From Callorhinchus milii (Eukaryota), in the NCBI RefSeq assembly GCF_018977255.1, contig NW_024704759.1, positions 13,516,001 through 13,580,000 of the forward strand: 64,000 nt of DNA. The letters run 5' to 3'. Under the pieces are notes generated by a model, which was not told the DNA's origin, ran no database searches, and was given only the letters and a program-made list of their open reading frames with translations. The position numbers and the translations under genes are program-made. Shown in pieces: positions 21,921 through 64,000 of the stretch. Each line of letters starts with the position of its first letter. Position 1 is the stretch's first letter.

Positions 21921-22741
21921 TCGCCACCAACTAGGCCGCTGGGACCTCAGGGCGACTTGAACAGCTACTGATCGATCCCCTCATCCTCCCCCTCACTGCA
22001 TGTGGGCCTCATATTTGCTTCAACCGGTTGGTCTGTATATCCAGTGTGTGTGTGTGTGTGTGTGTGTAAAAGAATTTTCCCGATTTGTTGCTGTGCACCA
22101 CCTACCTGTTCGCTCGCCTCTATATAAAAGAGAATGCGTGTGTGTGTGTGTGTGTGGAAGAAGCTGAGCAGCTCCACGGAATAGCGTACTTACCGTCCGA
22201 GGTCCTGGCACACTCGCCAGAATCTGACCCTAATAATGATAATAATAATAATACCGATAATCCTCGCGTTTGATATAGTGCTTTTCACGCCTCCGAGGCG
22301 TCTCGAAGCGCTTCACAGAATGTGCTGTAAAGTGAACTAACCGTATGTTTGCGGGTGAAAGGCGGCAGCCGATTGCGCGCAGCAGCCTCCCCGCAAACAG
22401 TCGTGGATTAAGACTCGAGGGTCGGTACAGAGCCTTTGCCTCTGCTGAAGAGTTCAGGACATGCCCCTTCCTGTCTGTAACGCTCAATCCACCCGGTTGC
22501 TGCCTTCCGGGGGTATTTTGTAAACTTCAGTGAATTAGATAAAAGTAATCGCACTACATTTGATGCATTTTTTTAAATACACCAACACCGTATTAAAGCC
22601 ACAGACTTTTTACAAACCGTGAGTTTCCTGCTGCTTATTTTGAGATGCCAGCGGGTTAAATTCACACACGTTAGCGACTTTTTTTCAAAAAAAAATGTTT
22701 GGATGCTCCCTTCATCAATATGTTCTTATTTTCAGAACCAG

Positions 22742-25700
22742 ATGAATGAAGCATTGGTACCCAACTGCAGTATGGGTGGAACTGGAAAAGATGGACAATA
22801 TTTTGTGGTGCTAAAGGAATTCTTGGCTGACAAAAAGAAGATTCCTAAAGGTTCAGTGGTCCGAAAGATTAAAGAACATTATGTGGTTCTGGATCTAAAT
22901 AAGCCACTAATGAATCTATCACATGAGAAGGCAAAATATTTGAAAGAAATCAGCAAAGATGATGCGGAAATGCTTTTTGAAATTTCAGAACCTTTTCAAC
23001 GATATGAGCTCTTTCAAAATGAAAAACTCTTTAAATCTATTGCCCGAATAAAAATTCATGACATAGTTCAATTAAAACCCCCCAAAGGTCCACTCATGGG
23101 AATTGTGAAAAATGTTAAAGGTTCTGAAAAATCACATGAACTGCTGACTGGATTGCTTTTTGAAGTGGAGATCCTGGTAAGCAGCAAATATTGGAGAATA
23201 TTAATGGGGGTGGAAAATATCAGAAATGTGCAAGAAGTGGCACATTTTCTCAGTGTTATTACAATTTAAACAATTCAAGAAACTTCAGAAGTTGTACTTG
23301 AGGATTATCGGGATTATTGGGAATTATTTTCTTTTGTTTTCTTCCAGTCTTAAGTTCCCATTTACAGTTGTATTCTCGTATTCTCCCCCCAAAAAGATGA
23401 TGGAAATGAAATCTTCTCAGGCCTCTGGCACTAATGCTCTGCTTGCTGTGTTTGTTGTTTGTCTCATCAGCATCTGGAGCTCCACTCTGCCCTCCTCTAC
23501 AGTGGGTTAACTGAGAATGGGAAACCCAAGGTGCAGAGAATTGTCAATGGGTTCTGTGTGTGTGTGTGTGTTGGAGATTCACCTCACTGTGACATTGACA
23601 ATGGAAGCTTAAAAATGTAAAGAATGTGTTTCATTCAGAAGATTCAGTGGTGGTGCCCAACTTGACAAAACACTTTTTTTTAAACTTACTATGCCACTGT
23701 TCTCCACCTTTCTCTAAATGTCTGATATCGTCGAACCACATTTTTCACTTCATTAATTTTCACACTAATTGATTTTTTTAAAAATCCAGCCTGAAGACCG
23801 TAAAACAAGGCAAAAGGGTAAAGTCATCAATGTTGATGCGGGAGATATTCTAATTGCACATAATGCTGATGAAGGAGAATCAGAAAGTATGAATGAAAAT
23901 TATACCAAACTACACTGTGATGGTAAGTGTAAGCAATGTGTAATCTAATGTTTTATTGGAAACTTAGTGACATTTGAGTAGACTTTTTTTTACACTTTGG
24001 ACTCACAATTTTGACTTAGAACAATAACATCCGTTTGGCCTATTTGAGTGGCCTTTTCACCTACATAATACTTAGTTGCTACACTTTCCAGTATATTGTG
24101 TAAAGTGCTTTGAGATGTCCACCTGACATGAAAAGTACTATATGATATGTAAGGACTATTATCATTTTTGTCTTGTTTGGGAAGACTAATAGCAGGACAA
24201 ATTGCATCCCAGCAAACCAGAATAGAGCAATGAGAAGAGAAAAGGCAAGATATTTTTTGTTTCTAAATCCGAGCATTCCAAGGAGCACTACACATCTACA
24301 TTTGTTGTTCCAGGGAAATCAGGTCCATTTCTTACTGAGAATGAGGAACTTGATCTAGAAGTTGGCTCGATGGTGCAAGTAAAATGGTTGAATGGTGCTA
24401 CAGTCTATGGCGTTATTAGATGGATTGGGGTTCCCAAAGGTTTGAAATGTGATTTTGCGGGAATTGAAATGGTGAGTATGGAAGTAATGGAAACGTTTTA
24501 TAACTGAAAAAGTGTCTGTACAATTGTTGTTATATTATTTTGGGTGGAAATAGTGGACCATAATAGTGACTTCATTTGAGAGTCCACTTTGACTCCTGGC
24601 ATTAATTTCCTCACTCTCCCACACACCAATATGGAAAACAAAATAGGATTTAACTTATCCTGTCGTATCATTCTGAAGCAACTTTCCCAGTTTTCTGGAT
24701 TTTGTGATGTGTTATTACAATATCGTTATTGGAATGTCAATATACATCCTAAATGACTATTAATAATATTTCTTAATGTGCATGGAATGGGCTTCCATTG
24801 CTAATTTATTGACTTTTGGAAATTTGAATATTTCAAGAATATTTCAAGAATTATTTTTTTTGGGGGAAAAAATGTTTTTCTTTAGGACTATGGATTAAAC
24901 GAAGGTACTGATGGAACTCTTCATAAAGAGCGTTACTTTAGTTGTGATCAATACAAAGCCATTTTTGTGGAGCTAACCAACTGTAAACCCGATGCGCGCT
25001 TTTTAACCAGGACACCAACCAAAAAGCCAACCACTCCGCAACACGTACCACCAGGTGAATGTCTTTGCTTTTTTAAGCAAAATTCTTTGTGTTTCTTTGG
25101 GTCTTGCTTCCATGTTGGACAGAATTAACGAAATTGCTGTGTTTGTGTAGAAGCTAGGATATTTGGTGAAGAAATGACCATAAATGAGGATGTCCCACCA
25201 GTCCGAGAAGACGAAGCACTACGTCTGATGAAAGGGAGAATGAAGGGGATTCAGGGGCATTATAACTCTTGTTATTTGGACGCCACAATTTTCAGGTGCA
25301 GTCAGTTGCCCTAGTTTTGAGATATTTGTGTGTCTGTCGCTGTGTTGGTCTTGGTTTTGAGTTTGAACCTGAGTTTAAATCCAGTGATGAATGATGGAAT
25401 GGGACTCTCCTGTATCTAATGGCTGTAAAGAGGTTTGTGAAGTTGGAGGTAGTTCTGAGGAGAAAAGCCTGACAAAAGCCCGACAGGTTCCAGGCTAGTC
25501 AGCCAGTCTGCCTTACCCGAGGGATTTGTATGTGTAAATGTGCCCGAAGACCAAGATTCCAAATCCCAGTGGGTAGTGCAGTCCTATCTATATGGTTGCC
25601 ATGAGTTCAGGAGGGTTAAATCATCTGGGTTATTCTGCCAGGTTGGTGTAGAGAATGAAAAGAATAATACATTTTAACTTGTTTTCTTAAAAAAAAGCAA

Positions 25701-39601: not shown

Positions 39602-40710
39602 TTATCCAACCATTGACCTCTTTCTCCCCCTCTGCCTGACTTCATCAAGTTTTTTGATCACAGGTCCCGATGTCTTAGAAGATGCTGAGTAGCTCTTCAG
39701 AATGACTTCAAACACACTCTCTGTGTTGGGATGAGTGCTTAGGAAAGCTTTCTCCAAAACATAAAGGTCAACCCCTTTATCCTCTGGCAGAGCAGAGATA
39801 AAACTCAACCCAAAATCTATCATTACCAAGCTCTGCTCATCCTCTGGTTTCTGCAGTAGGATGTTTGAGGTAGTGAGGTCTCCGTGAATGACATTCTGAT
39901 CATGCATTTTTGCCAAGATCTGCCCAATTTTCTCAGCCAAAGGATAGAGGCTCACCGTTTCCTTTTTTTCCTGCCAAGTTGATGTTATATAATCACGGAC
40001 ACTTACAGAGCCAACTAAATCTTCAAGGTAGATAGAGTTTGAATTGTAATCCACAAAATACACCACAGGAGTTGAAATACCTAAAAGTAAAAATGAAAAA
40101 AAGATAACTTCTAAAATTTAAAACAACTATTCAAAATAATAGTCAAAGTGGGATGGGCTTTAGAGAATTTTGTGAGCTTTTCCCTGACTAAAACATTTAA
40201 AAATGAATCTCAGTTCAATTCTTTCTGCCATTCTGCTGTCTTTCATCAGTACAAAACATCCTGAGGTAATTTTAATCGTTCCCTTAATAACAATCCTTAT
40301 ATTTGGCCTTGCAGTGTCAAGGAGGCACAGGGAGCCCTAGTCGCAGAGTGAAAGTGCACGGTTTGTGGCTTGGATGAGAGCTTCTCAGTATTGTGAGTAG
40401 GATAGGGACCAGACTGAATGTAATTCGAGCAACTACTGAATTGCTACAGACACTTACCAGCTTTCCTGCACCTAAGTATTGATCGTACTTCCTGAGCTGT
40501 CCTGCGATGTGTAAGTTTCTTGTCTAAAGCAGGGTGTCGGTAAGATTTTGAGAATCTTGCCTTCACAATGGTGGGCCTCCCCAGGAAAGTGACTCTGTAG
40601 ATTTTGGCTTCTGCTCCCTGTTTGATGATCTGAAAACCTTGAAGGAAATCTTGGACTGAAGGTTTCCCAAATCCGTCCAGCTCATCTTCCTGCTGCAGAG
40701 CTTCGGCCAT
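39602..40710 (-). CDS. TP53RK: TP53-regulating kinase (PRPK/Bud32, KEOPS complex), 2 coding exons, 243 aa
   Basis: Exons 40458-40710 and 39602-40080. Motifs [47 protein letters not shown] and C-terminal RGRKRSMVG. An acceptor at 40731 implies an upstream non-coding exon. AATAAA on - strand at 39518-39523. Confidence 0.96.
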
Positions 40711-43731: not shown

Positions 43732-46700
43732 TCACTCTTTTTCTAAGGTTACACAGTGCATTGACTCGACACTGTGAAAGTGTTGTTTTTCTGAATTTGT
43801 TTTGATCTTCTGATAGAGGTAATTGATCCTTTCTTCTTCCCGTTGTTCAAAGAAAGTTGAGGAAATTTTTCTTTGTGCTCTTAATGCATAGGTCTCTATA
43901 AACACTGTTATATAAGCAACAAAGTACAGAAGAGAGATGATGTAGACTATATTGATGTTTGGGGGGGATGTTGGCAACATACAGATATCGGACACAAAGG
44001 TGAAATTCTGATGGAATTCGTTTTGTCTTCTAATTATCTCTTCATTTGGAAGGAATGGAAAAATTTTAGACCAGAAATGCGACGCATCCACCTGGAAAAG
44101 ATTAAATAATATTTAAGCTTGTTTCAGAAAACCGTATCTAAATGTGAAGATATTTAAAAATTCTGAAAATACTACAAAGGGGGGTTGTTTGTAGGAGTAA
44201 GCTTTTCATCTTAAATTTCTAAAAATGGAATATTACATTCAAACATTGTTTATAAAGATGTTTGCAGTTAAAACTAAAAATAATAATAAATTGGTCATTT
44301 CAATCCACGACTGTTTGTGGGACGCTGCTGTGCGCAATTGGCTGCCGCGTTTCGCCCATAAATATACAGTCAATTCATTTTAGTCTATTCTGTGAAGCGC
44401 TTTGAGGCGTCGAGAAGATGTGAAAAGCGCTATATCAAATGCGAGGATTATTATTAAAACATAGGTGATAACTCCAAATGTTTAAGGTAAATGGAGGCTT
44501 TAATAACTCCCTGTAATCATGAATGTCCACTCAGCAGATTATATGTTTCAGTTGTCATAATAGTATGTTGTGGTCAGTCTGTCTGCCCAGAATATAAAAA
44601 CTCCAAGTTTATTCTTTCTTTACATAAAATTGAATTGATAAAATTGAAGGGCAGGACAACACATGATGGTCTCATGCATTCTTTTTCCCTACGAAAAATT
44701 TAAAAGCACAAGAGGTGGCAAGGACTGGAACAAGTTATCCATCCTCAGTCTGGCTTTGGTAGGGAGGTGATGGGGTGGATATCTACAAACAACGCAGGTG
44801 AAACAAAATCATGTTGGGTTTTTTACCTTGTACGAAAACTCCAGAGTGAGAGGAACATTCGGCACCTCATTCATCCAACTCAAGAAATATGAGGCAAGGT
44901 TGAAGAAGACTAAATCTGTTACTATGATAATTATGGACAGCACCATATATGCAGTAATAATCACTATTTTATATGCACATCTAGCAATTTCTTCTGTGGA
45001 CATTTTCAATCCCGTGGATTTGATTAGCTTTTTAGAAGAGATCCTGTGAGGTATGATTCTTTGATTGTTTGTCTCTACCAGGTGTGACAGCTTACTGGTT
45101 ATATATACGTTGTCAAATTGTAAATTGGTCAGATAGTTGTTCAGATACCAGGCTGATCTTATAACAAGATAAAAGCAAATACAGGCAGCAAGGGCTCTGT
45201 TGGTCCACAAAATGATTGCACTGAATACTTTATCATACATAGAAAACTCACTTTGGATCTGTTTGACAAAAGCTTGTATACTTTCCATGATCACTGACTG
45301 ATTGATGTCTGGATTGAATGTGAAGCTTGATTTTGATGACAAAAGCTGACGTTCTGCAGATTTCTTGATCACAGTTTTTACATCGTGGCCCAATACCTCT
45401 ATAGCCGCGTTCAATAATTCGGATGAATTCACAAAGCTCTCGGATGAGGAACGAGTGATGCACTCAAGGACTTTAAGCATCATCTTGATGTTGTCCACAA
45501 TGTTGGGGATTATGTTTACCGCTACGAGCATGAAGCAGGAAGAAAGGAGAAGATGGCGGCCCTGTTTGGTGCCTAGTGTGGGGACCGCCAGAGTGAACAA
45601 GCACCGTACTGGATGGACCAATAACAGAAGCAGGAACGCCACAGCAACAAACACACCCGATATAGCACCAGAAACGTGCGCTTCATATTCCAAAGAAGAA
45701 AACATCCAGTTGTACAGCAGGCCGCCATTTATCATTGCGATACCCAAACATAACGCAAAGAGAGTCAGTAGTTCTCTTAAGCAGGCTGGTGTGGGCTTGC
45801 AGTAAGCATTCCATGAGAATTGTACCACTCTCTTCACTTTCTCAATCAAACAAAGCAGGAAAGTCTGCAAATCGTAGCTTCTGTTCCTGTGTGGGAGGGG
45901 GGGGAGGGGGGAAATAAATAAGATTGCTTGTAGCTCAGATATATCCAAAAGGGACCTGCAGTAAAAATTGTCTTTAAAGCAGTTTCCAGAATGTGACTGG
46001 AGTTGTTTAATTTTTAAAGTTCTTGTTAATTTCTATTAATCCCTAAATATCAACTTGCACAGAATCACACTCCTTACGTGTGTATTTGTTCAAAAATATT
46101 ATTTTAAGTGCGAGAACCATGGAATTAAACTAAAGTTAAAAAGGTTTGCTTGGTACCCAGTCAGCTTTAGAAATATTTGTATTTTAGATCAGTCAAGTGG
46201 GAACTTATCTCCTGTTTTTCATTCACTATGTTTAAAAGTATCTTGCATGAACTTTTAAGAAAACATGATACTAAAGACCAAAATATTGGCAAGCAGTCAG
46301 AGGCATGTATATATAATGTTGGTTGCGACAGCCTTTCCTGAGAGGAACCTCCCAACTGTGCTGATTTAAACAGATTTGATATATTTCCCTTTTTAAAAAT
46401 GTCCATCCCTATATACTCACATTCACCTTAAATGGTGCAACTGGCATAATTTTTTAATCTAGTAACTACCATTACTGCAAAAAATCTGGCTGAAAACAGG
46501 GCTTTTTCACAATCAATAACACATGCTGTATGTAACTTTCTAAAAGGAGATGGTGGATGTTTTCTTAGTTGGATGTATTGTTTTATAATATTGTTATACT
46601 GTAGTAACACAGTATTACTATAGTAAATAGTAATGCATTGGTAGTTATTTAACCTCAGAAGTAGTTACTTATTTTTTATTGTTGTGTTTAAGAAATGAGA

Positions 46701-47790: not shown

Positions 47791-48504
47791 CCCACCCCCA
47801 GCCATTTGTATCGCATTTCGGAGCAATAAAGTACTATTAATTATGGATTTGTATTTAAGTATGGTCAGTTTCAACTGTCCCCAAGTGCTGGGATCCCGGA
47901 GAAAAGCATTAAGATGGAATTCAACTTCTGCTTCCAAATTTGAAGGGTCAGAAATTGTCTGGCACAACTAACTTTTGCTCTTTTTTATTTCAGATTTGCA
48001 GTATTTTTATTTAACCTCTTTTTGATCACCTCCTCAGCTGAGGTGTATGGTGTATGTCCTGAAGAAATCTAGACAGGGGAAATGGAGAGTAAGTAAAACA
48101 TTCTGTAAAAATAAGTGATCAAGTCGTCAATAATTCCCCCATCCTTCAGGTTTGCTTTCGGTCACTTCTGTTCTCCTTGGGTTTAATGATTTTCCAGTAC
48201 CTTCACTTTTTGGTATTTTAGAGTTTAGATTTCTTACTTTTCCAGGGACCACATGCATTATATGTCTTGCTTTTTTCATGTGGCTGATCAATTGTGGCAA
48301 TGCAAACGGTTTCAAATAAATTATTTCAAAACTGGCCTCAATGTGTTGGCTGGAGATGGATCAATAGGAATAAGAGTTGTGGAAAGGGTAAGTTGCCGTT
48401 TTGCTAAATAAGTCCATGAATCCTTTCATTTTACTAAATGAAGTAGACATTGTTTTCCAAAGGGGCTACAATTACGGTTTTGTGTTATTGTGTGGATTCT
48501 TTGC

Positions 48505-51500
48505 CTAGTCAGGATAAGTTGACAATTGGAATATAGGCTGACCCCATGTGTTGATTGCTAGGAAAAGTAGGATGTTTCCCCAAACATTCAGGACGATCCC
48601 TCCTTTGACCTGGTGAGACAAAAGCAATGTCAGCAACTCTTTGGCTTGTACTGGTTTGGCTAAAAAACGTCATTCACCAAAAATAACTATTGTAAGACAC
48701 TTTGAGACATTTCAAAGCGAGACACTATAAAAATGCTAATTCTTTTGATCAGTTTTTTTTAGTTTTGTAATATCATCTTTGAAAGTATTCTAAAACTTAA
48801 AGGTTAAAATTGATGTAATCACCGCCCCTCCCAAAATAATGTGAAGAGTGTTCAACTGAATGCTTTATGAGGTTAAGTGTGTTAAATCCACAATGATATA
48901 AATTCATACCCCTGTAGTAAAGAATAATTGAATGTCACGTACCATATCTTTGACATGGAGCTGTCTTGAACTAAAGGCAATGGTATTTTCAGGGGTTCCG
49001 CTTGGCAATGTAAAGGCAAAGGAGGAGCTCACTGTTGCAGGCACCATCAGGTAAAGGGGATGTACCTTCATACGTACGGACTAGAGAAAAGAGCACAGAT
49101 TACAGCAGGATTCTGTCTAAATGATTATTGTTGAAATCAAATGACAAGATTTTGAAAATAGAGCCTTCAGTGCACCTTTAGCTCACGCTTAACTCTTGAC
49201 TGAAAAAAACATTTTTTTAAAAATTCCAACCCCTCCTTCTCTTTTGTTTTCCCATTCTCACCAAAAAAAAGGCAATGAATGCTGACTGATGCAAGCATAA
49301 GCACTGCTTGGATATTGTGGATCGAATGCAATTGTAAAGTGAGAGTGGGTCGGAAGCTCACCAGTTTAGCCAAAACGGGCAACAGGACTGCACTTGTGAC
49401 ACTACTGTTGAGAAACTCCGTAACCACAGATACCGTCAAGCTAATAAGCAAGACAGCTGCACTTGCTGAGATCTTTTCCAGCGGTTGAAAGAGATCCCCG
49501 ATCCATACGGACAGCTCTGATTCCTGGCAAGAAAACGCAAAAATACATTCTGTAGGAAATTGTATTAGTTTATTTCTAAAATGGCATAATATGAAAAAGA
49601 ATTATGGACTAAAAACTGAGGGTGAAATTTTCTTTCTCTTTCTCCCCCCTACCACTCCCAATATGATAACGGGGAATAAACAATAATATTATATTATAAA
49701 CAATTTAATCACCAAATCATCTTTGCAGAATATGCTAGAGGTTCTTTTCTAAGTAAACAAGTTCCTTTTTTAAGTAAACAAAAGATTCTGGGAGGCTTTA
49801 TTTTATTTGTTATGTATTAGGTTGCTAGGGAGATGGGTATACATTGACATTTACATTTTCCATTGAAAAAAATGCATGAATGGCAGTTATTCCCATTCAA
49901 GGATTAAGATACCTTTTATCACGCCTCTATTGTCGACCAAACACAGATTTTACAATTATTTTGCCTATCTTATCTCATAGTCTCATAGTTGCTTATTGAT
50001 ACATTATTATACAAAGGGAATTTTATTGTTGTGTATTGACTATCCTACTTTGTTGAATGAATTGACCTTCATATGTTTTTTTTAATGTCACTCAATATTG
50101 CAGTAGTTACATTTTTTTTCGCCTTTGTTGGCTGTTTAAACAAATTTGGCACATCTTTCAATAGTACAGCAATTACCTCGGTTCCTTTTGCTAATGCAAA
50201 ACCTCCTCCTAATAATATTAACACATTCCAGGGAACTTTCTTTTGGACTGTTTTCCAGGATAGCAGTGGCACCACTGGTTCATACTCAATGTTTTTGTCT
50301 GAATAACAAAGCCAAGAGAAAACTTCAGGTATACAACACTTCTCGTGCCTTGTTCATTCAAGTTATTATGCTTTTTCAACAAGAAACAAGTTGATGTTTA
50401 CTTATAGTATCATAGCAGTTAGCAGTAACTGGGAGTTAGAGAACGATAAAATAATCAAAGGTGTTCACATCAGTTTTCTGCTCAAGCTGTTGTGATTTAT
50501 CAATAACATCCTCACTCAAGCGAGACTTGACCTGGTGAGTTGCCTCCAACCATGAACATTTATTGTTAAAGGTTTAAGTGAATAAACTATTAAGTATTGG
50601 AAGAGTGGCTCAAAACAAGTTTATTCAATACGCATATACGCTACCCAATAAAGGACTGTACATACCCGAAGGATCAATTTTCCATTTGTAAGTTGGTTTT
50701 TGTGAGGGAAAGATGAACAATAAAATAATGATCAAAGTAGAAGCTGCGGCATCTGAGACGTACCTGGGAACCAAAAGACAACTAATTTTGCCTTATACTG
50801 TAGTTTCACATAGTTAAGATTTTACAGAAGAAATGCAAGACTTTAATCTTATATTTTCTTGCATGATAAGTTGATCAGTGAGTAATCATCACAGGTGTGC
50901 TGCACTTGGCAATAAATTAAAATGCACATTTTTCTTAAAATAATTGCTTAAATAGTCTAAATTTGCTAGAATATGAAAACGTGGAGAGTGTTTTTTCAAC
51001 ACAAAATGAATGCAGAAAAGTGCCTTGCTTTCGCTCATTGCTTCCTCATGATAATGAGGCTTAGACTGGCAACTTTACTGAAGTGGAGGAAGCTCAGAGA
51101 TTAAACTACTTACTTGGGCTGGAAGATTTTCTCCCACCCCAACATATATTTGGGACTTCTTGTGAAGAGAATAATTACGAACAGAAGGAAAACAAATCCA
51201 ACAGCCTTCTCAGCAAACCTGCAAGACAAGACACAACAATCTGATCCAGTAAGCACTGTATTGAGGTACGGGGTGACAGCAACTAGAACAACAACATGCA
51301 TTTATATAGCGCCCTTCACGTGGGGTAGCGTCTCGGAGAACAGACCAGAAGCAGAAAACAATATACAAAAGATGTGACCCATGACTTAAAATAATAACAA
51401 ATTGGGGTTATATAGTGCCTTTCACATTGGGAGATGCTACAATGGATTCCCACTAGTTTTGAAATGACAGGACTGCCTATTACTTTGAATTAAACAACTC

Positions 51501-54500
51501 CTAAAGCAGACTGATATGGTTCCACAAATCCTTGCCATGGAATTTGGTTTCATGATTCTAGATCTAAATACGCGACAGACAGGGAGTCACAAAGGACTCC
51601 AAAGTTTGATAGATGTAGGATGACCACTAATCTGTTTGCATTAGAATACACAATTAGAGCCCATCCTCCCGACGTGAAAGGCGCTCTATAAATGTAATTT
51701 TGTTGTTGTTGTTGTTGTAGAGCCAATACGAAAACATGTCCTTCAATCTAAAGTAAACCCAATCATACATACTTTATTGGCCCCAATTTTTTGTATTCAT
51801 TATGTATAATAGCCTGCAGTTTGGCTGCTGTTTCAGACTTTTTCTTCTGAATCCAAAACCTAGCGATGGAAATAGAAACAATAAAAAACACTGGTACAGT
51901 GGTAAAAATCTTCCACTGTATACTCCTTCCCTCCCTCACTTTCACATAAGCTACAATCACTCTTATTTATAAAAATAGATCCTAATGCCCAGACATCGTG
52001 CGGCTGATATTCCTTCTCAATTGTGATTATACAACACTAACAAAGAACCTGGCATTCAAAATCCTCCCATCTCATGAAGGCATTATTCATGCCGAGACAT
52101 GATTCCACATTAAACCAACCATCAGTGTCTCGCCCAAGCAATCGCTCCTCAAGTGTAAGACACAAATACTAGTCTAGGCACAGTGAACCATTAGCTTTTT
52201 ACCTGGTATTTAACATATACCCTCACCACCCCCATACTCATACTCAATTTCAAATCTAGTGGCCCCACCCATACCTTCCTTGGAGTCCTCCATAAAGTAT
52301 TGAGATCCACAGCCAAGCTGACAGTAGTAATAGCAACATGAAAGGTAAGGCAAACAGCAGCCAGGACCCAAAGGTCAATGTGTGAGAGTTTGGGAAAGTT
52401 CTAAAAGGAAATCAAATCACAAACATTAGAATCAGGCTCCAGAGTTGTTTACCATTAACAAGGAAGTAACTTCTAGAAAGNTTTTTTTCTAAAAGTTGGG
52501 AGAGATTTAGATAGGCAGAATGGATTTGGAAGAGAGTTCCAGAGAACAGGCATAGTGGCTAAAGGCTCCGTCACCGCGAGTAGCATGAAGGATTGGGGAG
52601 AGAACCATAGATTAGCCAGGAGAACACAGGGTGCAAACGGGAATGTAGGGTTGGAGAAAGTTGCATCGGTAAGGTGGGTAGAGTTCATGGAGGGATTTGA
52701 CGACCAGGGTAAGGATCGTCAAACTCAACCCTCCAGTTACTGGGAGCCAGCGTCCTGGAATACTTTGTGAGATAGGGATAATGGGTGCGCAGAATCTTTG
52801 TTTTAGATTCTTTTGTTTTAGATATGATTATCAGGGCTCTGAAGAATATTATATGCGAGGAAAATATTATATTATAAATGATCTAGTAACATTGAGAGAA
52901 AAAGGATAGGTGGAGGCAGAGGTAATGCATGCAGCCACCCCCCCCCACCCACCCCCACCATATAGTGACATAAAACATTACCTTTTCACCTGACCATCAA
53001 GGATGAGGTTTGGTACCGACCCTGTTAGAGTGGCAATGCCTCCGATACTGGCAGAGTAGGGAATGGAAAGAAGTATACCCTTCACTATGTGTTTGTTTTC
53101 TTTTCTCACCATTTTTCCAATCGTTTCCTCATCTATTTCCAAACTGAAAATGTAAATGCAAGATTAATCTGGTAACATTTTCCTGATCAGGTCAATGGGT
53201 TTCATCAAAGCAGTCTTTGCTAATGCGTTTAATCGGGAATTTCCTTTGAATCTACACATCTGAGAGGTCAGTCAAACAAATCTTGGAATGTGTTAATATT
53301 TTAGTCATTTATTAAACATGTTTTCCACAGCACTCACTTACTCTGTTAGTATAGTTGAAGAAGAATGGCCAATTATGTCACTATATTCTTTGAAAGCGCA
53401 GAGGAAATAATTATCTGAGGGATCTCAATGATAATGTGTGCAATTGGCTATTGCGTTTTGCCCACAAAATACATAGTCAATTCGCTTTACAGTATATTCT
53501 GTGAAGCGCTTTGAGACGTCTCAAGAACCTGATAAGGAGCTATAGCAAAAGCAAAGATTATTTAACGACAATTGACATTTATATAGCACCTATCTTATTG
53601 GGAGGACATCTTAAACCATTTCATAAAACTGACTGAGGCTTTAGCAAAGGGGTAAAGGTAGCTAAATCAAGTCAGAAAACCGAACGGGCCAAGGTGCTTA
53701 ACTAGTACATGGCTAGGACTATATTTTTCATTAGTTAACTCCCTACTTTTCTTGTGTCTCAGTTTGAGTTGACAAGCGGTCCTTCTGTTGAAATACTGAA
53801 AAACACATCACAAGATCACAAGATTAGTCTGGATGAAGGCAAGAGAGGGAGCGAGGCAAAGGGATTGTGGGATGGAGTTCCAAAGAGTGGGGGCAGAGAG
53901 GCTCAAGCCTGGCCACCGATGGTAGGGCGAGTCGGGTGGGAAACCTGGAGCAGGCCGGAGCGTGCTGAGTGGAGGGAGCTGACAGGTTGATAGAGGGTCA
54001 GCAGGTCGGAGATGTAGTAGGCAACAAGGCTGTGGAGGGCCTTGAAAGTGAGGACAAGGGGATTTTGAATTCTATCCACTGAGGGATGGGGAGCCATTGG
54101 AGCCGGGCAAGGGCGGGGGTGATGGGGTCATGGTGACAAACCAGAGCAGCACGGAAACCCAATTGGAGGGGCTCGTGAAGAGAGTGGTAGGAGAGGAATG
54201 AACGAAGCTGAGAAGCAATGACTCTTTCAAGGACCTTCGAAAGAAAAGATAACAGGCTCTCCAGCCAGCAAAGCTCCTCTGCACAGGATTTGCAATTAGG
54301 TTTTCACGGGTACCTGCATTAATGTGGCTGACTGACATATCCGTTGATTCCTCGTCACCATACAGCGTCTTAAGAATTGCATTGGCTATAGGCATCATGG
54401 TTACTGTTGTGGCAGAATTATTCATCCACATCGACAGAATACTGGTGGTCAACATCAATCCCAAAAGGAGCCTAAAGAACCGGGACCAAGAGCAGGAATA

Positions 54501-55726
54501 AGCAATATTAAGGTATGCTTTCAAACTGCTGTTGTTGGCAAACAACAGAGTATGAGTTTTTTTCTTTAGCCATAATAATCCTTGCATTTGACATAGTGCC
54601 TTATCGCGTCTTCAAGACGTCTCAAAGCACTTCACAGAATATACTGTAAAGTGTATTTTACGGGCGATGGATCTGAATCCACCCCAAAATATAAAATCCT
54701 AATTTCTCTGCACTGGTGGAAACTTGATGGTAATGTTCAGAATATAACTTGGATAGTTCACGTGATCCGTCAGACATTGCCTGCAGTCACTGTCAATTGA
54801 ACTCTTTAGAGCTTGTGCCAATTCCACCCACTCAGGACTACTCATCCAATTATTAAATGTAATTATTAAATTTAAGGTACATAGATGCGGATGTGTAGGG
54901 AGGGGAAGGAGGGTTACGATTACTTCAGGAGGAAGTGACTGTGTCTTCACGGTACAGTACAGTACTTACATAGTTGGTTTAACTCCCACATACATGAGGA
55001 TATGAAGTGCTACTCTACGGTGAAGATTCCAATTCTCCATGGCCACGGCTAATATCACACCACCCATGAAGAGGATGATGGTGTCAGCAAAGTACTGAGG
55101 GCACACCTTGCTGGAGGCCATGATCCCGAATGTAGGGAAGATGACGATGGGGATCAATGAGGTCACTGCAACTGGCAATGCTTCCGTGCACCAGTAGGTG
55201 ACCATCACAAGGAATACGTAGAGACATTTTGCCTGCTAATGATGTGGTGGAGAGAGAGAAAGAGAGATGGAGAGAGGGAAAAAAATACATCTGGTAAAGT
55301 CGTTGAAAATGGCACTTCTCTTACAATCCCATCTCTTGTCACAGCCTAGTTCTTATCACTAAAAGGACAGTAGGATCGTCTTCTAAGTGACAGTAATTGC
55401 ATTTGATACAGCGCCTTATCCCGTCGTGGAGACGTCTCAAAGCGCTTCACAAAATACACTGTAAAGTGAGTCGAGGTTTAGTTTCGTGGGCGAAACGCGG
55501 CAGTCAATTGCGCACAGCAGCGTCCCCACAACAGCGGTGGACTGAGTCACCAAATCATCATCATCATCATCATCATTATTATTATTATTTTAAACGAAAG
55601 AGATTAGATGCTTACCTTCAAAGGAATGCTGTATAAAACTGGTAGAAGTATTAACGGGGTTAGTACCAACACTAATTCACGCTTGAAGCGAATGACCCTT
55701 TTGCTTATCACTTTGATCTTGTCCAT
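48505..55726 (-). CDS. Divergent SLC13 (Na+/dicarboxylate cotransporter family) tandem paralog, SLC13A3-like, 13 exons, ~561 aa
   Basis: Exons 55616-55726, 54970-55235, 54314-54471, 53342-53387, 52982-53143, 52275-52400, 51773-51859, 51114-51218, 50666-50763, 50177-50298, 49362-49523, 48943-49080, 48505-48609, all in phase. Motifs [64 protein letters not shown]. Exons 11 and 12 (162 and 138 nt) equal those of the neighbouring SLC13A3. Exon 4 uses a weaker AAG acceptor. Confidence 0.9.
53825..54170 (-). mobile_element. L2 LINE fragment in an intron of the SLC13 paralog
   Basis: Translation [32 protein letters not shown]. An older L2-like piece lies at ~52480-52760. Confidence 0.8.
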
Positions 55727-56149
55727 TGTGTGCTCGAGTCCGACCACAGCTGTGTGTGTGTATGTGTGTGTGGGAGTGCTGTGCTGTGCTGTGCACCAAC
55801 CAGGCGAGGGTTCTACAGGAGCAGCTACAGGTGAGTCAACACCTGGTTGGCATCAAACACCTGCTCTCCCACCCACTGCCCTCCCCACCCCGTACAGCAC
55901 ACACCACCACCCCACAGCACACACAGACACAGGCACTTCACACCCAAGAGTAAAACACGTGGAGCCGAGAAATGAGCTGGTGATCTGCTGACCCCTCTCT
56001 CTCTCTCTCTCTCTCTGTTGAGTTGCCACCAACATTGGTCACAAAGCGTTTGAGGCGTGAGTCAAGGCTTGTGGTCAGACGTCACCACAACATGTCCCAC
56101 CTTTACGTTACAGCCTTTTACTACAGCTTTTTAATAGTAATATATATAT

Positions 56150-59869: not shown

Positions 59870-62800
59870 TTACAAAGTCCCATTCAGAGGCATCATAGTC
59901 CCATTCACGACATTCCCACTGTCCAGAGCTACTGTTATGACTTTAGCCCAGTCAGGGTAAGTATTGAGTTGGAACATGTACAGCCCCCATGTGTTCACAG
60001 CAATGAAGAGCACAATGATGCCCATAATGTTCATAACAACTCCAGTCTTCACCTGTAGAGATAATGATAATCTGTTATAATCTGTTATAATAATAATAAT
60101 CCTTGCATTTGATATAGCGCATTATCACATCTTCGAGACATCTCAAAGCGCCTCACAGAATATACTGTAAAGTGAATTGACTGTATTTTATGCATGAAGA
60201 TAATGGGAAAATGAATGAGTAAAAGGGGACTTTAGAAATCACCCACCCACTCAAATTTAGAATGAAAGACAGACCCACCCTTCTATATCCCTGGATAGGG
60301 TCTGAGGATTGGCCTTTGCTGACCTGGAATAAGTTCGGAGGTTTGGGGCTCGAAATAAATTAATAAAAAAATGGGTCGGAAAAAAAAGAATACAACACAT
60401 TAGAGACATGGGCGCTTCAGCCCACTGCCACAGTACTGTTCCTGGTCATAACATAAGGCTAAAGGAGCCTGATGTGAGATGCATTGTATTGGCCCCAACA
60501 ACCAACATAAATAATTTTCCAAACTATCTTCATTCCTTACATGGGAATAACAGACTCAATGATTAAACTCCAGCCAGGTCTTGCTTTTATTTATGGAAAC
60601 TCCTGCTTAACAATAAATCTTATGTTAGCAACGGGACCATAGTCAACTTGTTAATCAGCCTAACCACGGCTCTGATCAAGCCAGTAATCCAGCTAATCTC
60701 CATCAAAAAAGATTGTTTGTGGGTCACTGCTGTGCATAATTGGCTGCCGCGTTTCGCCCACAAAATACACAAATCACTACACTTTACAGTATATTGTGTG
60801 AAATGCTTTGAAACATCTCAATGACATGATAAGGCACTATATCAAATGCAAGGATTATTATTTGTAGTAGTAGTATTAAGACATGATATGAATTTTCAAC
60901 CTCTTGAGTTTTGCTAACTTTAATGGTGATTCGTAGCTCTTTAAAATATTTCTCTCACACATTGCTCTCACCCATGTTAACACGAGTCTGTTAATTGTTC
61001 ATCCACAGCTCAGTCAGTGTAGATATTGTTTACCAGGAGGGTTAAACACATTCATAATTGGCTGCCGCGTACACCTAAAGAATTTCCTCTGACAGCAATG
61101 TTCAATCTATTAACCCATCTTTCTCCACATTGCACAGCTAACCTAACCTATCATGGCCTTACATTTCCTATAGAGAAGTTCTGCATAGAGACCCCATAAA
61201 CGCCAATTCAACCAAGCGGAAACTCTATAATACAACACTAGCCTCACAGGTCCTCATTTCAGTTCAGACCGTCTTCTTTTATTGATTTCCCCAAGATTAA
61301 GTCCAAAGAGCACAGCAATCAAAAAAAAAAGCAATAAAATTGGTCACTTCAATCCACAACTGTTTGTGGGACGCTGCTGTGTGCAATTGGCTGCCGCGTT
61401 TCGTCCACAAATATACAGTCAACTCACTTTACAGTATACTCTGTGAAGCGCTTTGAGACGTTTAGAAGACGTGAAAAAGCGCTGTATCAAATGCAAGGAT
61501 TATTATTATTATTATTAAAGCATTCTCTCCCATGGAATATTTGTTCATGTCAGCCTGCAGCTATCCTTACATCTACCAAAACCGTTTTGAAGGCCCTTGT
61601 GCATGTTGAAAGCAGTTATCTTGTTTGTGGGCAGGTCAATAAATGATAGGTCTAACTGCATGGACTTTTTAGGATGATGTAACAGCATAAAATTACATCA
61701 GATGACCCACTTCTGTAACTAAGTGAAGAAAATTATACTTTTTTGTAAAGTCATTGGTTAAAAATAACACGATATGTATGTGAGGTCAAAGTATCTTTTT
61801 GCAGCACCTTGTGCAGCAAAGCAATCAGGGAAAATGTGCAATCAGGCTTGCCATAAGAAGGAAGAGAAATAGAGGATTAGTCAAATCGTCGCTATTTTTC
61901 AACACCTTTCAGATTACAGGACAGCATTATCAAGAACTGGTTTGTGGGTCTGAGGTTGTCGATTGAGGGGAAAGATCCAAAAACGTTTGTGGTTGCAGTG
62001 CCCTATACTTCCTAGCCAAGTCTGCGTTACCTTCATCCAAAACCCTGCCCTCATGCTTTACCCTCATCCAAAACCAATGCTTTAAAGTAACTTGGATGAA
62101 ACATGTCTAATCCGATCAGCACTGTGGATTTACATTCCAGTTTCTTCTGACTTAATTAAGAATTGTTATTGGCATAAAACTGATTATTTAAATGGAGATT
62201 AGGTCACCAAGAGAAGAATTCCAACTGTTTATTTGCGTCATGTTCCTTTGCTCACTGACCTCTTTCGTGGCCCCTGCACAGTTAGATGAACCCATACAAA
62301 CTAAGCCTAAATGCTTGCCACTACTGTAACAGAAATCAAATCATAAACCAAGCTCATCTTGGAAGTCTTGTGCTGTTCACTCTATTCACGATTTGGACAA
62401 GACTACCTCAATTAGGATAAAATGTGCCAATTAGGGTTAGGATTGTCACAAACTATGAAGATAGGTAGCTAATAAGGGGGTTAATATTTAATAATCCTTG
62501 CATTTGATATAACGCCTTATCATGTTGAGATATCTCAAGGGCGATTCATAGGGATATACTGTAGAGTGGATTGACTGTATTTTATGGACATTCCACTCAC
62601 ATGTCGGTTAGTATATAGTCTTAAGTGGGAGCAAATGTATTCCAGCTCAGGGTTTGTACTAGAAATTCAACGTACCATATCCGTGACCATTAGGTGGCCT
62701 GTAGAAAAGGCGATAGAGTTTGGAGGAGTCGCGACTGGGAGCATGAAGGCAAAAGAGCACCCTACAGTTCCGGGAATCATCAGGTAGAGAGGATTCACCT

Positions 62801-64000
62801 TCAAATGAATGGCCTGTAGACAACAATAAGAGGGAGCAGTTGCATTTCTTATGATGAAAGCTACGCACCCGGTGGATATCAAATACAATTCTATCAGCCA
62901 AAGAAATTCCATACTGCCCTCAGAGGGTGCTATACAAATGTAATTTGTGGTTGTTGGTGACTATCCACTCTACAGACACATAATGCGCTGTGCTCAAGAA
63001 ACTCACCAGTTGGGTAACAATCGGTAGGAATATTATAATTGTAGCAGTGTTGCTGGCAAATTCCGTGAAAAATGCTAGCGTTATGGCAATGACCAGGACA
63101 GCTAGACTTGGCGGCAGGTCCTCAAGTGGATGGAGCTGCTTGCCTATCCAGCGTGACAGCCCTGATTCCTGAAAAGTAAAACATTGCAGGTGTTCAAACA
63201 CTGGGTTAAAGAGTTTAAAACCTGTTCAGACTAACTTAAAATTACTATTGCCGAGGAGCAAGGCCATAGTTCTGCCTTGTTTTCTACCCAATGCAGCAGG
63301 AAAGTGATTTATGCAATGAACCCAGTGGAACAATGTTTTTCTTATAAGGTTGTGGGTTCAAACTCCAAGTCAGGGTTTTGAGTTTATTGTCCATGCAATG
63401 TCATGTGCCAGCAGACAGGGAAAAAAAAGGGAGTTCATAGACTTTCAGGAGAGGAAGAGCTGGACAAGGGATGAAAAATGGAGAAGAAAGATTTAAGGTG
63501 TGTGTTTATGCGGGTGGGGGTAAGCGCAGCTACATTTTTATGGAAACTTACAATTAACTTTCTTTTAGCTACAAAAATACTAAGATTTCAGTAGGGAGTC
63601 ATTGTCATTGTGGAAAAGTCAAAATACTGCAGGTGCTGAAAATCTGAAATAAGAACCAAAGTGGCTGGGAACACTCAGCAGGTCGGGCAGCATCTATGAA
63701 GAGAGGAAAGTGAGTTAACTAATTGAGTTCTGATGAAAGGACATCGACCTGAAAGGTCAACTCACTTTCCTCTCTCCATAGATGCTGCCCGGCCTGCTGA
63801 GTGTTCCCAGCCACCTCTGTTCTTATTGTCATCGTAGACTTAGGTTAATTACATATCAGGATTGAGCTGTCGTCAGTTTTTGAGGCAAACAACAAATAAC
63901 AAATAAAATAATGCATGTACCTCACACCCTTTTGCCATTGCAAAACCTCCTCCTAAAAGCAGGACCACATTCCAGGGTAGGTTTGCTTGAACTTTTTTCC
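59870..64000 (-). CDS. SLC13A3: Na+/dicarboxylate cotransporter NaDC3, last four exons (gene continues beyond the window)
   Basis: Exons 63921->64000, 63007-63168, 62676-62813, 59870-60052. Motifs LPWNVVLLLGGGFAMAKGCE, ESGLSRWIG, FTEFASNTATIIIFLP, HLKVNPLYLMIPGTVGCSFAFMLPVATPPNSIAF, NTWG..FQLNTYPDWA. Candidate AATAAA (-) at 57979-57984. Confidence 0.93.
63620..63827. mobile_element. Palindromic Penelope-derived non-autonomous element (long inverted repeat)
   Basis: Arms 63648-63716 and 63759-63827 are near-perfect reverse complements (GGGAACACTCAGCAGG..GGGCAGCATCTATG / CATAGATGCTGCCC..CCTGCTGAGTGTTCCC) around a hammerhead core. Assignment to the Penelope-like family is from recall. Confidence 0.7.
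63724..63764 (+). ncRNA. Minimal type I hammerhead ribozyme-like motif (Penelope-element type), probably degenerate
   Basis: Stem I TGAGTT (63724-29)/AACTCA (63759-64); core CTGATGA (63730-36); stem II AGG.C/G.CCT (63738-50); GAAA (63751-54); GTC cleavage triplet ending 63758. Confidence 0.6.

Follow-up and report, generated by a model that had tools for sequence, protein, structure and literature searches.

A chimaera SLC13A3 paralogue altered at both binding-site hairpins is a candidate carrier of changed substrate or coupling

Vertebrate SLC13 carriers are thought to be of two kinds, carboxylate and sulfate carriers, both of which have two asparagines in the binding site. In a window of 64,000 nucleotides (nt) from the genome of Callorhinchus milii (contig NW_024704759.1), we studied an SLC13A3-like gene, here called Z, that lacks one of these asparagines, the one belonging to the second sodium site (Na2). 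Z stands in a tandem array with two other SLC13A3 copies, X and Y. We consider the chances about even that Z encodes a working, elevator-type anion carrier with altered substrate or coupling, in which the half-site for Na2 and the second carboxylate has been remodelled. Coordinates below are positions in the window unless a contig is named, and X1 to X8 denote sequencing runs.

Results

Z is altered at both hairpins and both loops of the binding site

Z lies on the minus strand (55726-48505) and has 13 exons; 12/12 introns are of the GT-AG type, and the spliced open frame of 563 amino acids runs from an ATG at 55726 to a TAG at 48507-48505. The open 13-exon gene described by a first-pass annotation of this DNA is thus confirmed, as are the four altered motifs that it reported on the minus strand next to a canonical neighbour. 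Hairpin 1 (HPin) of Z reads SMWM-NNS-AT and hairpin 2 (HPout) TEFL-NSS-VT, and loops L5 and L10 read TGSVPN and LPSGTPEN; in the window, Y has the canonical TEFASNTAT and LPVATPPN. The same swaps occur in both hairpins of Z, serine to asparagine at position 1 and threonine to serine at position 3. Z therefore has NNS and NSS in place of the two S-N-T/V motifs that form the signature of sodium-dicarboxylate cotransporters (NaDCs).

We compared Z with an alignment of 147 other rows, made up of 134 SLC13A3 proteins, 8 shark SLC13A3-like (3-like) proteins, X, Y and 3 C. milii outgroups; excluded from it were P0001-P0003 (Z itself), P0052 (another model of Y) and P0004, P0007 and P0136, which are over-long. 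The residues S143, T237, S467, N468, P513, M506, G431 and G521 are found in 147/147 of these rows and are replaced in Z. At the third hairpin position, where Z has serine twice, threonine occurs in 145/147 rows (hairpin 1) and 144/147 rows (hairpin 2). We found that the two half-sites have fared unequally. The Na1 ligands S139 (HPin serine), N144 (asparagine side chain) and G236 (L5 glycine) are all retained, as are T463 and T511. The Na2 ligand, the HPout asparagine side chain, is absent, Ser468 standing in its place, and at 513 in L10 Z has gained a glutamate where the other rows have proline. A one-residue register shift in hairpin 2 was ruled out, the alignment having no gap there.

The site positions, 15 in number, were chosen from structure papers on NaDC1 and NaCT after the motifs were known, and the p-values are thus indicative. 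Z has changed 7/12 conserved site positions against 35/190 conserved positions elsewhere (Fisher p=0.004), an enrichment at the pocket of about six-fold; with a stricter conserved set, it has changed 5/10 site positions against 17/126 others (p=0.010). By region, the changes at conserved positions amount to 15/85 (18%) in the scaffold, also 18% in the first transport half and a peak of 15/52 in the second transport half. Among deeply invariant residues, Z keeps 114/136.

No other protein with the Z motifs was found: a search with exon 11 returned only the 3 C. milii models among 145 candidates, and a full HMMER search gave 23 matches, 21 with S-N-T/V and 2 without such a motif, none of them having the motifs of Z. 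Among the excluded rows, the Conger models P0004 and P0007, which are NaCT-like, have the loops ATGAN and PVN (TPVN), and P0007 also has an altered first hairpin; they may represent a further variant of fish SLC13 or else errors in the models. Because these models have altered loops, variation does exist in other fish SLC13 copies.

Z is predicted to retain the family fold, and one half-site keeps its known ligands

The closest solved relative of Z is SLC13A3/NaDC3 (human 8UVC and 8UVE), both by sequence (E 8e-169) and by fold. A predicted model of the Z protein P0002 (predicted local distance difference test score, pLDDT, 72.8) matches 8uve with a Z score of 36.1 and a root-mean-square deviation of 3.5 over 493 aligned residues, suggesting that the elevator fold is kept; P0002 is an imperfect database model, the prediction used an alignment of canonical relatives, and the result is uninformative on the pocket. 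Pfam PF00939 covers residues 18-539 of P0002 (239 bits; cut-off 27). Like NaDC3, Z keeps the Na1 ligands. Unlike it, Z is altered at the HPout Asn, both hairpin Ser, three Thr and the second L10 Pro and has lost the C-terminal Trp and tail, overall identity being about 50%.

Published work describes what these residues do in relatives. In NaDC1, Na1 is bound by backbone carbonyls and Asn141 and Na2 by backbone carbonyls and Asn476, citrate contacts Ser140, Thr142 and Thr240, and alanine at S140, N141, T142 or N476 lowers the current (PMC10980263). In VcINDY, the serine and asparagine of the second hairpin anchor the second carboxylate, and both anchors seem to be required (PMC8652582); alanine at the Na1 or Na2 sites is said to abolish transport in VcINDY, NaCT and NaDC3 (PMC13394699). 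A mutational scan of NaCT, whose values as compared with Z cover residues up to about 412, found I139M, S140N, T142S and T227S to be neutral, and N465H gave no uptake (PMC12204159). The contact residues of NaCT are listed in PMC13370374. The first-pass statement that both sodium and substrate motifs are rewritten therefore holds in that residues have changed in both, and fails in treating the halves as equal: the Na1 asparagine is kept, each first-half swap, taken singly, is neutral in human NaCT, and the second half alone loses a residue known to be essential, the Na2/carboxylate asparagine. We conclude from the residues present that the first half-site of Z is probably functional and that the second is not canonical. 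Both hairpins carry the same S>N and T>S changes, and these, taken with the new L10 glutamate, look like retuning.

Other members of the fold change substrate or coupling through hairpin and loop residues, as seen in LaINDY (Arg/His in the sodium sites), Drosophila INDY (H+/citrate), yeast Pho90, a phosphate carrier with His at the HP2 Asn position, and ArsB (H+ antiport) (PMC11782487, PMC13381914). None of these is a vertebrate SLC13; no basic residue occurs among the 15 site positions of Z, LaINDY standing outside the residue-by-residue alignment, and Drosophila INDY keeps both asparagines. In SLC13A1 and SLC13A4 (NaS1 and NaS2), specificity is set against that of the NaDCs by residues of L5 and L10 (NaS1 Ser260 and Asn533; PMC10980263), and both loops are changed in Z. 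NaS1 and NaS2, unlike Z, keep both asparagines, and a sulfate-carrier signature in Z was ruled out, since Val238 and Thr511 occupy the selectivity positions instead of Ser and Asn. The A4-type gene of C. milii (C5) carries the sulfate-type Ser (L5) and Asn (L10).

Z is the chimaera orthologue of an old shark paralogue

We built two trees, a quick one of 30 rows with outgroups and a careful one of 16 of those rows (LG+G4, no outgroup). Z is sister to the shark proteins labelled NaDC3-like, with a Shimodaira-Hasegawa-like approximate likelihood ratio (SH-aLRT) support of 93 in the quick tree and 100/99 in the careful one, and falls in a clade of SLC13A3 plus shark 3-like proteins (support 99). 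Forcing Z, X and Y together was rejected by the approximately unbiased (AU) test (p-AU 0.000275), and 12 derived residues unite Z with the shark paralogue, against 0 that unite it with X/Y alone. A recent tandem duplication of Z from its neighbour is rejected by this test and by the shared derived residues. Thus, the phylogeny with chondrichthyan orthologues that the first-pass annotation called for does place Z in the SLC13A3 clade, but beside the shark proteins rather than beside Y, and its description of Z as a tandem duplicate of the adjacent SLC13A3 is not borne out. The sequence comparisons indicate that Z is orthologous, in the chimaera, to an old SLC13A3 paralogue of cartilaginous fishes and that the duplication is older than the chimaera-shark split; it may also be older than jawed vertebrates (support 82 in the quick tree).

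The eight shark orthologues (Heterodontus P0005, Heptranchias P0011, Stegostoma P0008, Hemiscyllium P0026, Cetorhinus P0024, Carcharodon P0027 and Scyliorhinus P0047 and P0121), whose labels are automatic annotations, are separate from ordinary SLC13A3. Unlike Z, 8/8 keep both asparagines and both hairpin serines, with mild drift (hairpin 2 T>S in 1/8; first L10 P>A in 4/8). Because all eight retain S-N in both hairpins, the rewriting of the pocket is placed on the C. milii (chimaera) branch, to which it is confined as far as seen. The shark drift falls at the same elements (P0024, P0027, P0047, P0121 and P0008), with TAPN for TPPN in 4/8 and SNS for SNT in Stegostoma, and the pocket of the paralogue may have loosened before the chimaera rewrite. 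A protein search gave no match of 52%-84% identity, and no ray or skate orthologue was among the matches listed (8000 candidates scored). The RefSeq numbers of the paralogue and of SLC13A3 follow one another directly in Hemiscyllium and Chiloscyllium plagiosum, and the contigs of the two genes are equal in length, which suggests that the shark paralogue is likewise tandem to SLC13A3 in these two sharks.

The sequence of Z is supported by independent runs, spliced and constrained

In X3-X6, four whole-gene, intron-spanning runs from one study, no alternative letter occurs at any Z motif or at the stop. By the listed contig pieces, motif 1 is covered in 3/4 runs, the TGSVPN loop in at least 3/4, and motif 3, motif 4 and the stop in 4/4. 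An assembly error as the origin of the motifs was rejected, as the independent runs agree. Over 48400-55800, these runs contain 20 substitution rows and 5 indel rows, all of them outside the motifs and the stop. Only 1/20 substitutions is coding (Leu>Val) against a 24% coding share of the covered bases (binomial p=0.028; with indels, 22 events, p=0.017), in contigs that lose rare variants.

We found that Z is transcribed, X1 being RNA by our guess. A 528-nt contig of X1 joins exons 10, 11 and 12 with 0 mismatches, and the bin depths of this run exactly match an extension into exons 9 and 13 plus a second contig joining exons 5-6. X7 and X8 have repeat cover only and X2 mostly unspliced pieces, and these runs are uninformative on expression of Z.

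The ratio of nonsynonymous to synonymous substitution rates (dN/dS) was 0.25-0.33 for Z and Y (0.27 by the Nei-Gojobori method, NG86; bootstrap 0.20-0.36) and 0.17-0.22 for Z and X. The first-pass annotation had held that absence of expression with dN/dS near 1 would speak for a gene turning into a pseudogene; what we found are spliced contigs in X1 and a pairwise dN/dS of about 0.27. A neutral gene of the size of Z would remain intact with a probability of at most 0.29 after 1% divergence and of 0.08 after 2%, counting substitutions alone. Z has changed at 42 conserved positions with no frameshift and no broken splice site, and because a neutral copy rarely stays intact, these changes arose under selection for the frame. 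With its open frame, 12/12 GT-AG introns and dN/dS of 0.17-0.33, Z resembles a pseudogene only in a stop that comes 10 codons before the old end. Together, these comparisons indicate that Z is under constraint, which is weaker than in Y.

Gene model, C-terminus and neighbourhood

The features of Z and the 3' exons of Y are collected in Table 1; Z has the same 13-exon layout as Y (P0122). Z is already labelled 'SLC13A3-like' (Callorhinchus milii) in databases, and its 13-exon form is matched by 0/4 database models, both RefSeq models being without exon 6 and two UniRef models differing in loops and ends. Because X1 splices exon 6, a transmembrane exon, to exon 5, the public RefSeq models are probably incomplete there. 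The first-pass annotation called the gene intact, and this stands for frame and splice sites; it had overlooked that the stop replaces a conserved tryptophan. The N-N-T sequon past the stop has the same spacing from the tryptophan position as the sequons of the shark orthologues, and because this tail is still in register with them, the truncation is probably recent.

Table 1. Positions of the parts of Z and of the neighbouring Y exons in the window.
Feature	Position	Strand	Evidence
Exon 1 (ATG at 55726)	55616..55726	-	X1 contig terminates at donor 55616
Exon 2, 266 nt	54970..55235	-	agrees with RefSeq model P0001
Exon 3, hairpin 1 (HPin); NNS (54422-54414) replaces canonical SNT; Na1 Asn N144 retained	54314..54471	-	sequence and alignment
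Exon 4, 49 nt, cytoplasmic loop	53747..53795	-	present in RefSeq model P0001; no RNA junction seen
Exon 5, loop L5 TGSVPN at 53025-53008 (T237S, A/P238V)	52982..53143	-	sequence and alignment
Exon 6, transmembrane helix 6 region	52275..52400	-	absent from RefSeq models P0001 and P0151; joined to exon 5 in X1 (contig record and bin depths)
Exon 7	51773..51859	-	present in P0001
Exon 8	51114..51218	-	spliced open frame
Exon 9	50666..50763	-	exon 9-10 junction inferred from X1
Exon 10, containing the one coding polymorphism found (Leu>Val at 50194 in X6)	50177..50298	-	
Exon 11, hairpin 2 (HPout); NSS at 49409-49401; N468S (Na2 Asn to Ser); also G431E	49362..49523	-	spliced in X1, 0 mismatches
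Exon 12, loop L10 LPSGTPEN at 49008-48985 (V509S, A/S510G, P513E; T511 kept); also M506T, G521R	48943..49080	-	spliced in X1
Exon 13, coding part, ending with TAG at 48507-48505 at the conserved-Trp position	48505..48609	-	no other letter in X3-X6
Ten in-frame codons past the stop, with N-N-T glycosylation sequon in register with shark orthologues	48472..48504	-	compared with shark protein tails
Canonical neighbour Y (SLC13A3, P0122), 3' exons	59872..64000	-	Y continues to G000:C18:13586260

X lies upstream of Y, at about C18:13589333-13602499 (L007-L009). The hairpins of X and Y are canonical, and their exons 2 are near-identical, encoding the same peptide, while their other exons diverge (dS about 0.36); this suggests gene conversion between the two at exon 2. 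Z is followed by a DC-STAMP-family gene with an OCSTAMP-like open reading frame (ORF) at 44809-46032 (minus strand); in human, OCSTAMP neighbours SLC13A3, which fits this arrangement. A kinase exon at 39602-40117 (minus strand), 3' of the SLC13A3 array like the DC-STAMP-family ORF, is presumably TP53RK-like, and human TP53RK is on the opposite side. An open exon of 230 codons without a Pfam match at 22577-23269 (plus strand) resembles, in our estimation, a CYLD-type N-terminal region. Elsewhere, G000:C10:8403000-8440000 (L013-L016) holds at least 4 tandem genes of the SLC13A2/A5 type, whose motifs are canonical and of which three are near-identical, in an array that extends beyond the stretch examined; recent expansion, gene conversion and assembly duplication would each account for it.

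Discussion

Z, an annotated gene, is a member of the SLC13 family and of the NaDC3 clade and yet lacks two features that define NaDCs. A working carrier with altered substrate or coupling is supported by the orthology, the clustering of changes at the site, the constraint, the spliced transcript, the fold and the asymmetry of the half-sites. Such a carrier would transport an anion that bears less charge or is otherwise different, coupled to fewer Na+ than NaDC3 uses in its cycle of 3 Na+ : 1 dicarboxylate. Its Na1 half-site (S139, N144, G236) would still bind Na+ plus one acidic group, and N468S with S467N and P513E would remove or rebuild both the Na2 site and the anchor for the second carboxylate. 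This remodelling would have taken place in the holocephalan lineage, X and Y retaining the role of NaDC3. The more specific proposal that Z gave up the Na2 site altogether, running on one or two Na+ (or with Glu513 as a proton site) and carrying a monovalent or other non-dicarboxylate anion, is one that we put forward tentatively and regard as doubtful.

Several observations weigh against altered transport. Conserved positions outside the site (35/190) are changed as well, including G431E, M506T, G521R and M150T, and two equivalents of Z changes, M147T and G228V, are deleterious in NaCT; in the same scan, the standard errors for the neutral swaps are large (S140N 0.57, T142S 0.74; PMC12204159). 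At sites that are normally invariant, Z differs from Heterodontus by 30% and Y from shark SLC13A3 by 11%, over the same species split. The stop removes a glycosylation sequon along with the family-conserved C-terminal Trp. The pairwise dN/dS values average both lineages, with dS near saturation (1.1-1.3), and the sole coding polymorphism of Z is non-synonymous. Spliced pieces of Z have a contig depth of about 4-5 and, among the pieces listed, come from 1/4 runs guessed to be RNA. The branch of Z is long (0.73-1.02; Y 0.12), so that long-branch pull is partly possible, and no second holocephalan orthologue was found by the exon-11, full HMMER and protein searches. Because non-pocket conserved sites have changed and the late stop is invariant across the runs examined, part of the signal of Z is, by these comparisons, general relaxation.

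How far does this relaxation go? If Z became redundant once X and Y arose, it could be decaying slowly, its frame surviving by chance; the long branch (0.73 against 0.12), the altered scaffold positions (15/85), a late stop that looks recent given the tail in register, the low expression and the lack of a ray or skate orthologue among the matches listed all fit such a course. We consider it unlikely, however, because 42 conserved changes without a frameshift or splice break would have to coexist with a probability below 0.09 of neutral survival past about 2% divergence, and because coding polymorphism is depleted, 114/136 deeply invariant residues are kept, a spliced transcript is observed in X1 and changes are enriched six-fold at the pocket. 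Altered transport is thus likelier than decay. The first-pass preference for neofunctionalisation over decay is upheld by pocket clustering, transcription and constraint, and is weakened in that relaxation contributes and that the new specificity would be read from sequence. A further possibility is that Z folds and dimerises as a regulatory partner or sensor, selection on the pocket having lapsed while selection on the fold stayed. This predicts exactly the pattern seen, a changed pocket in a kept fold, and two canonical paralogues adjoin Z; but the parallel changes left both hairpins polar, in better agreement with a retuned site than with a free one, and conservation of the scaffold does not exceed that of the first transport half (18% changed in each). 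To our knowledge, no vertebrate SLC13 has such a non-transporting role, and we rate this the least probable of the explanations considered.

Somewhat less improbable than either, though still unlikely, is that Z remains a Na+/dicarboxylate carrier, perhaps of low affinity, with N467 and Glu513 taking over the Na2 and carboxylate contacts. The changes are mostly conservative (three T>S, two S>N), T463, T511 and the Na1 ligands are retained, the first-half swaps are neutral in NaCT (PMC12204159), the hairpin serines of Drosophila INDY tolerate alanine (PMC11782487), and Na2 is held mostly by backbone carbonyls (PMC10980263). Set against this are an asparagine at the exact position in all other rows with no register-shifting gap, the crippling of NaDC1 and NaCT by alanine or histidine there (PMC10980263, PMC12204159) and the reported loss of VcINDY, NaCT and NaDC3 transport on alanine substitution at the sodium sites (PMC13394699). 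We therefore favour a carrier with altered substrate or coupling.

We found no description of Z or of the shark/chimaera tandem paralogue in the literature searched, most subscription journals lying outside that search. In stingray kidney, slc13a3 is abundant and regulated by salinity (PMC9396271). Z points to a tandem SLC13A3 paralogue common to sharks and chimaeras, and Z and this paralogue may bear on the handling of anions by the cartilaginous-fish kidney. In human SLC13 proteins, mutations at the site asparagines cause loss of function; Z is a natural, transcribed and constrained copy without the Na2 asparagine, and as such offers a test of whether the Na2 site is exchangeable for a different substrate or coupling. 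Transport by Z without Na2, if true, would be a new mode in vertebrate SLC13 and a natural experiment on the second sodium site in the elevator cycle.

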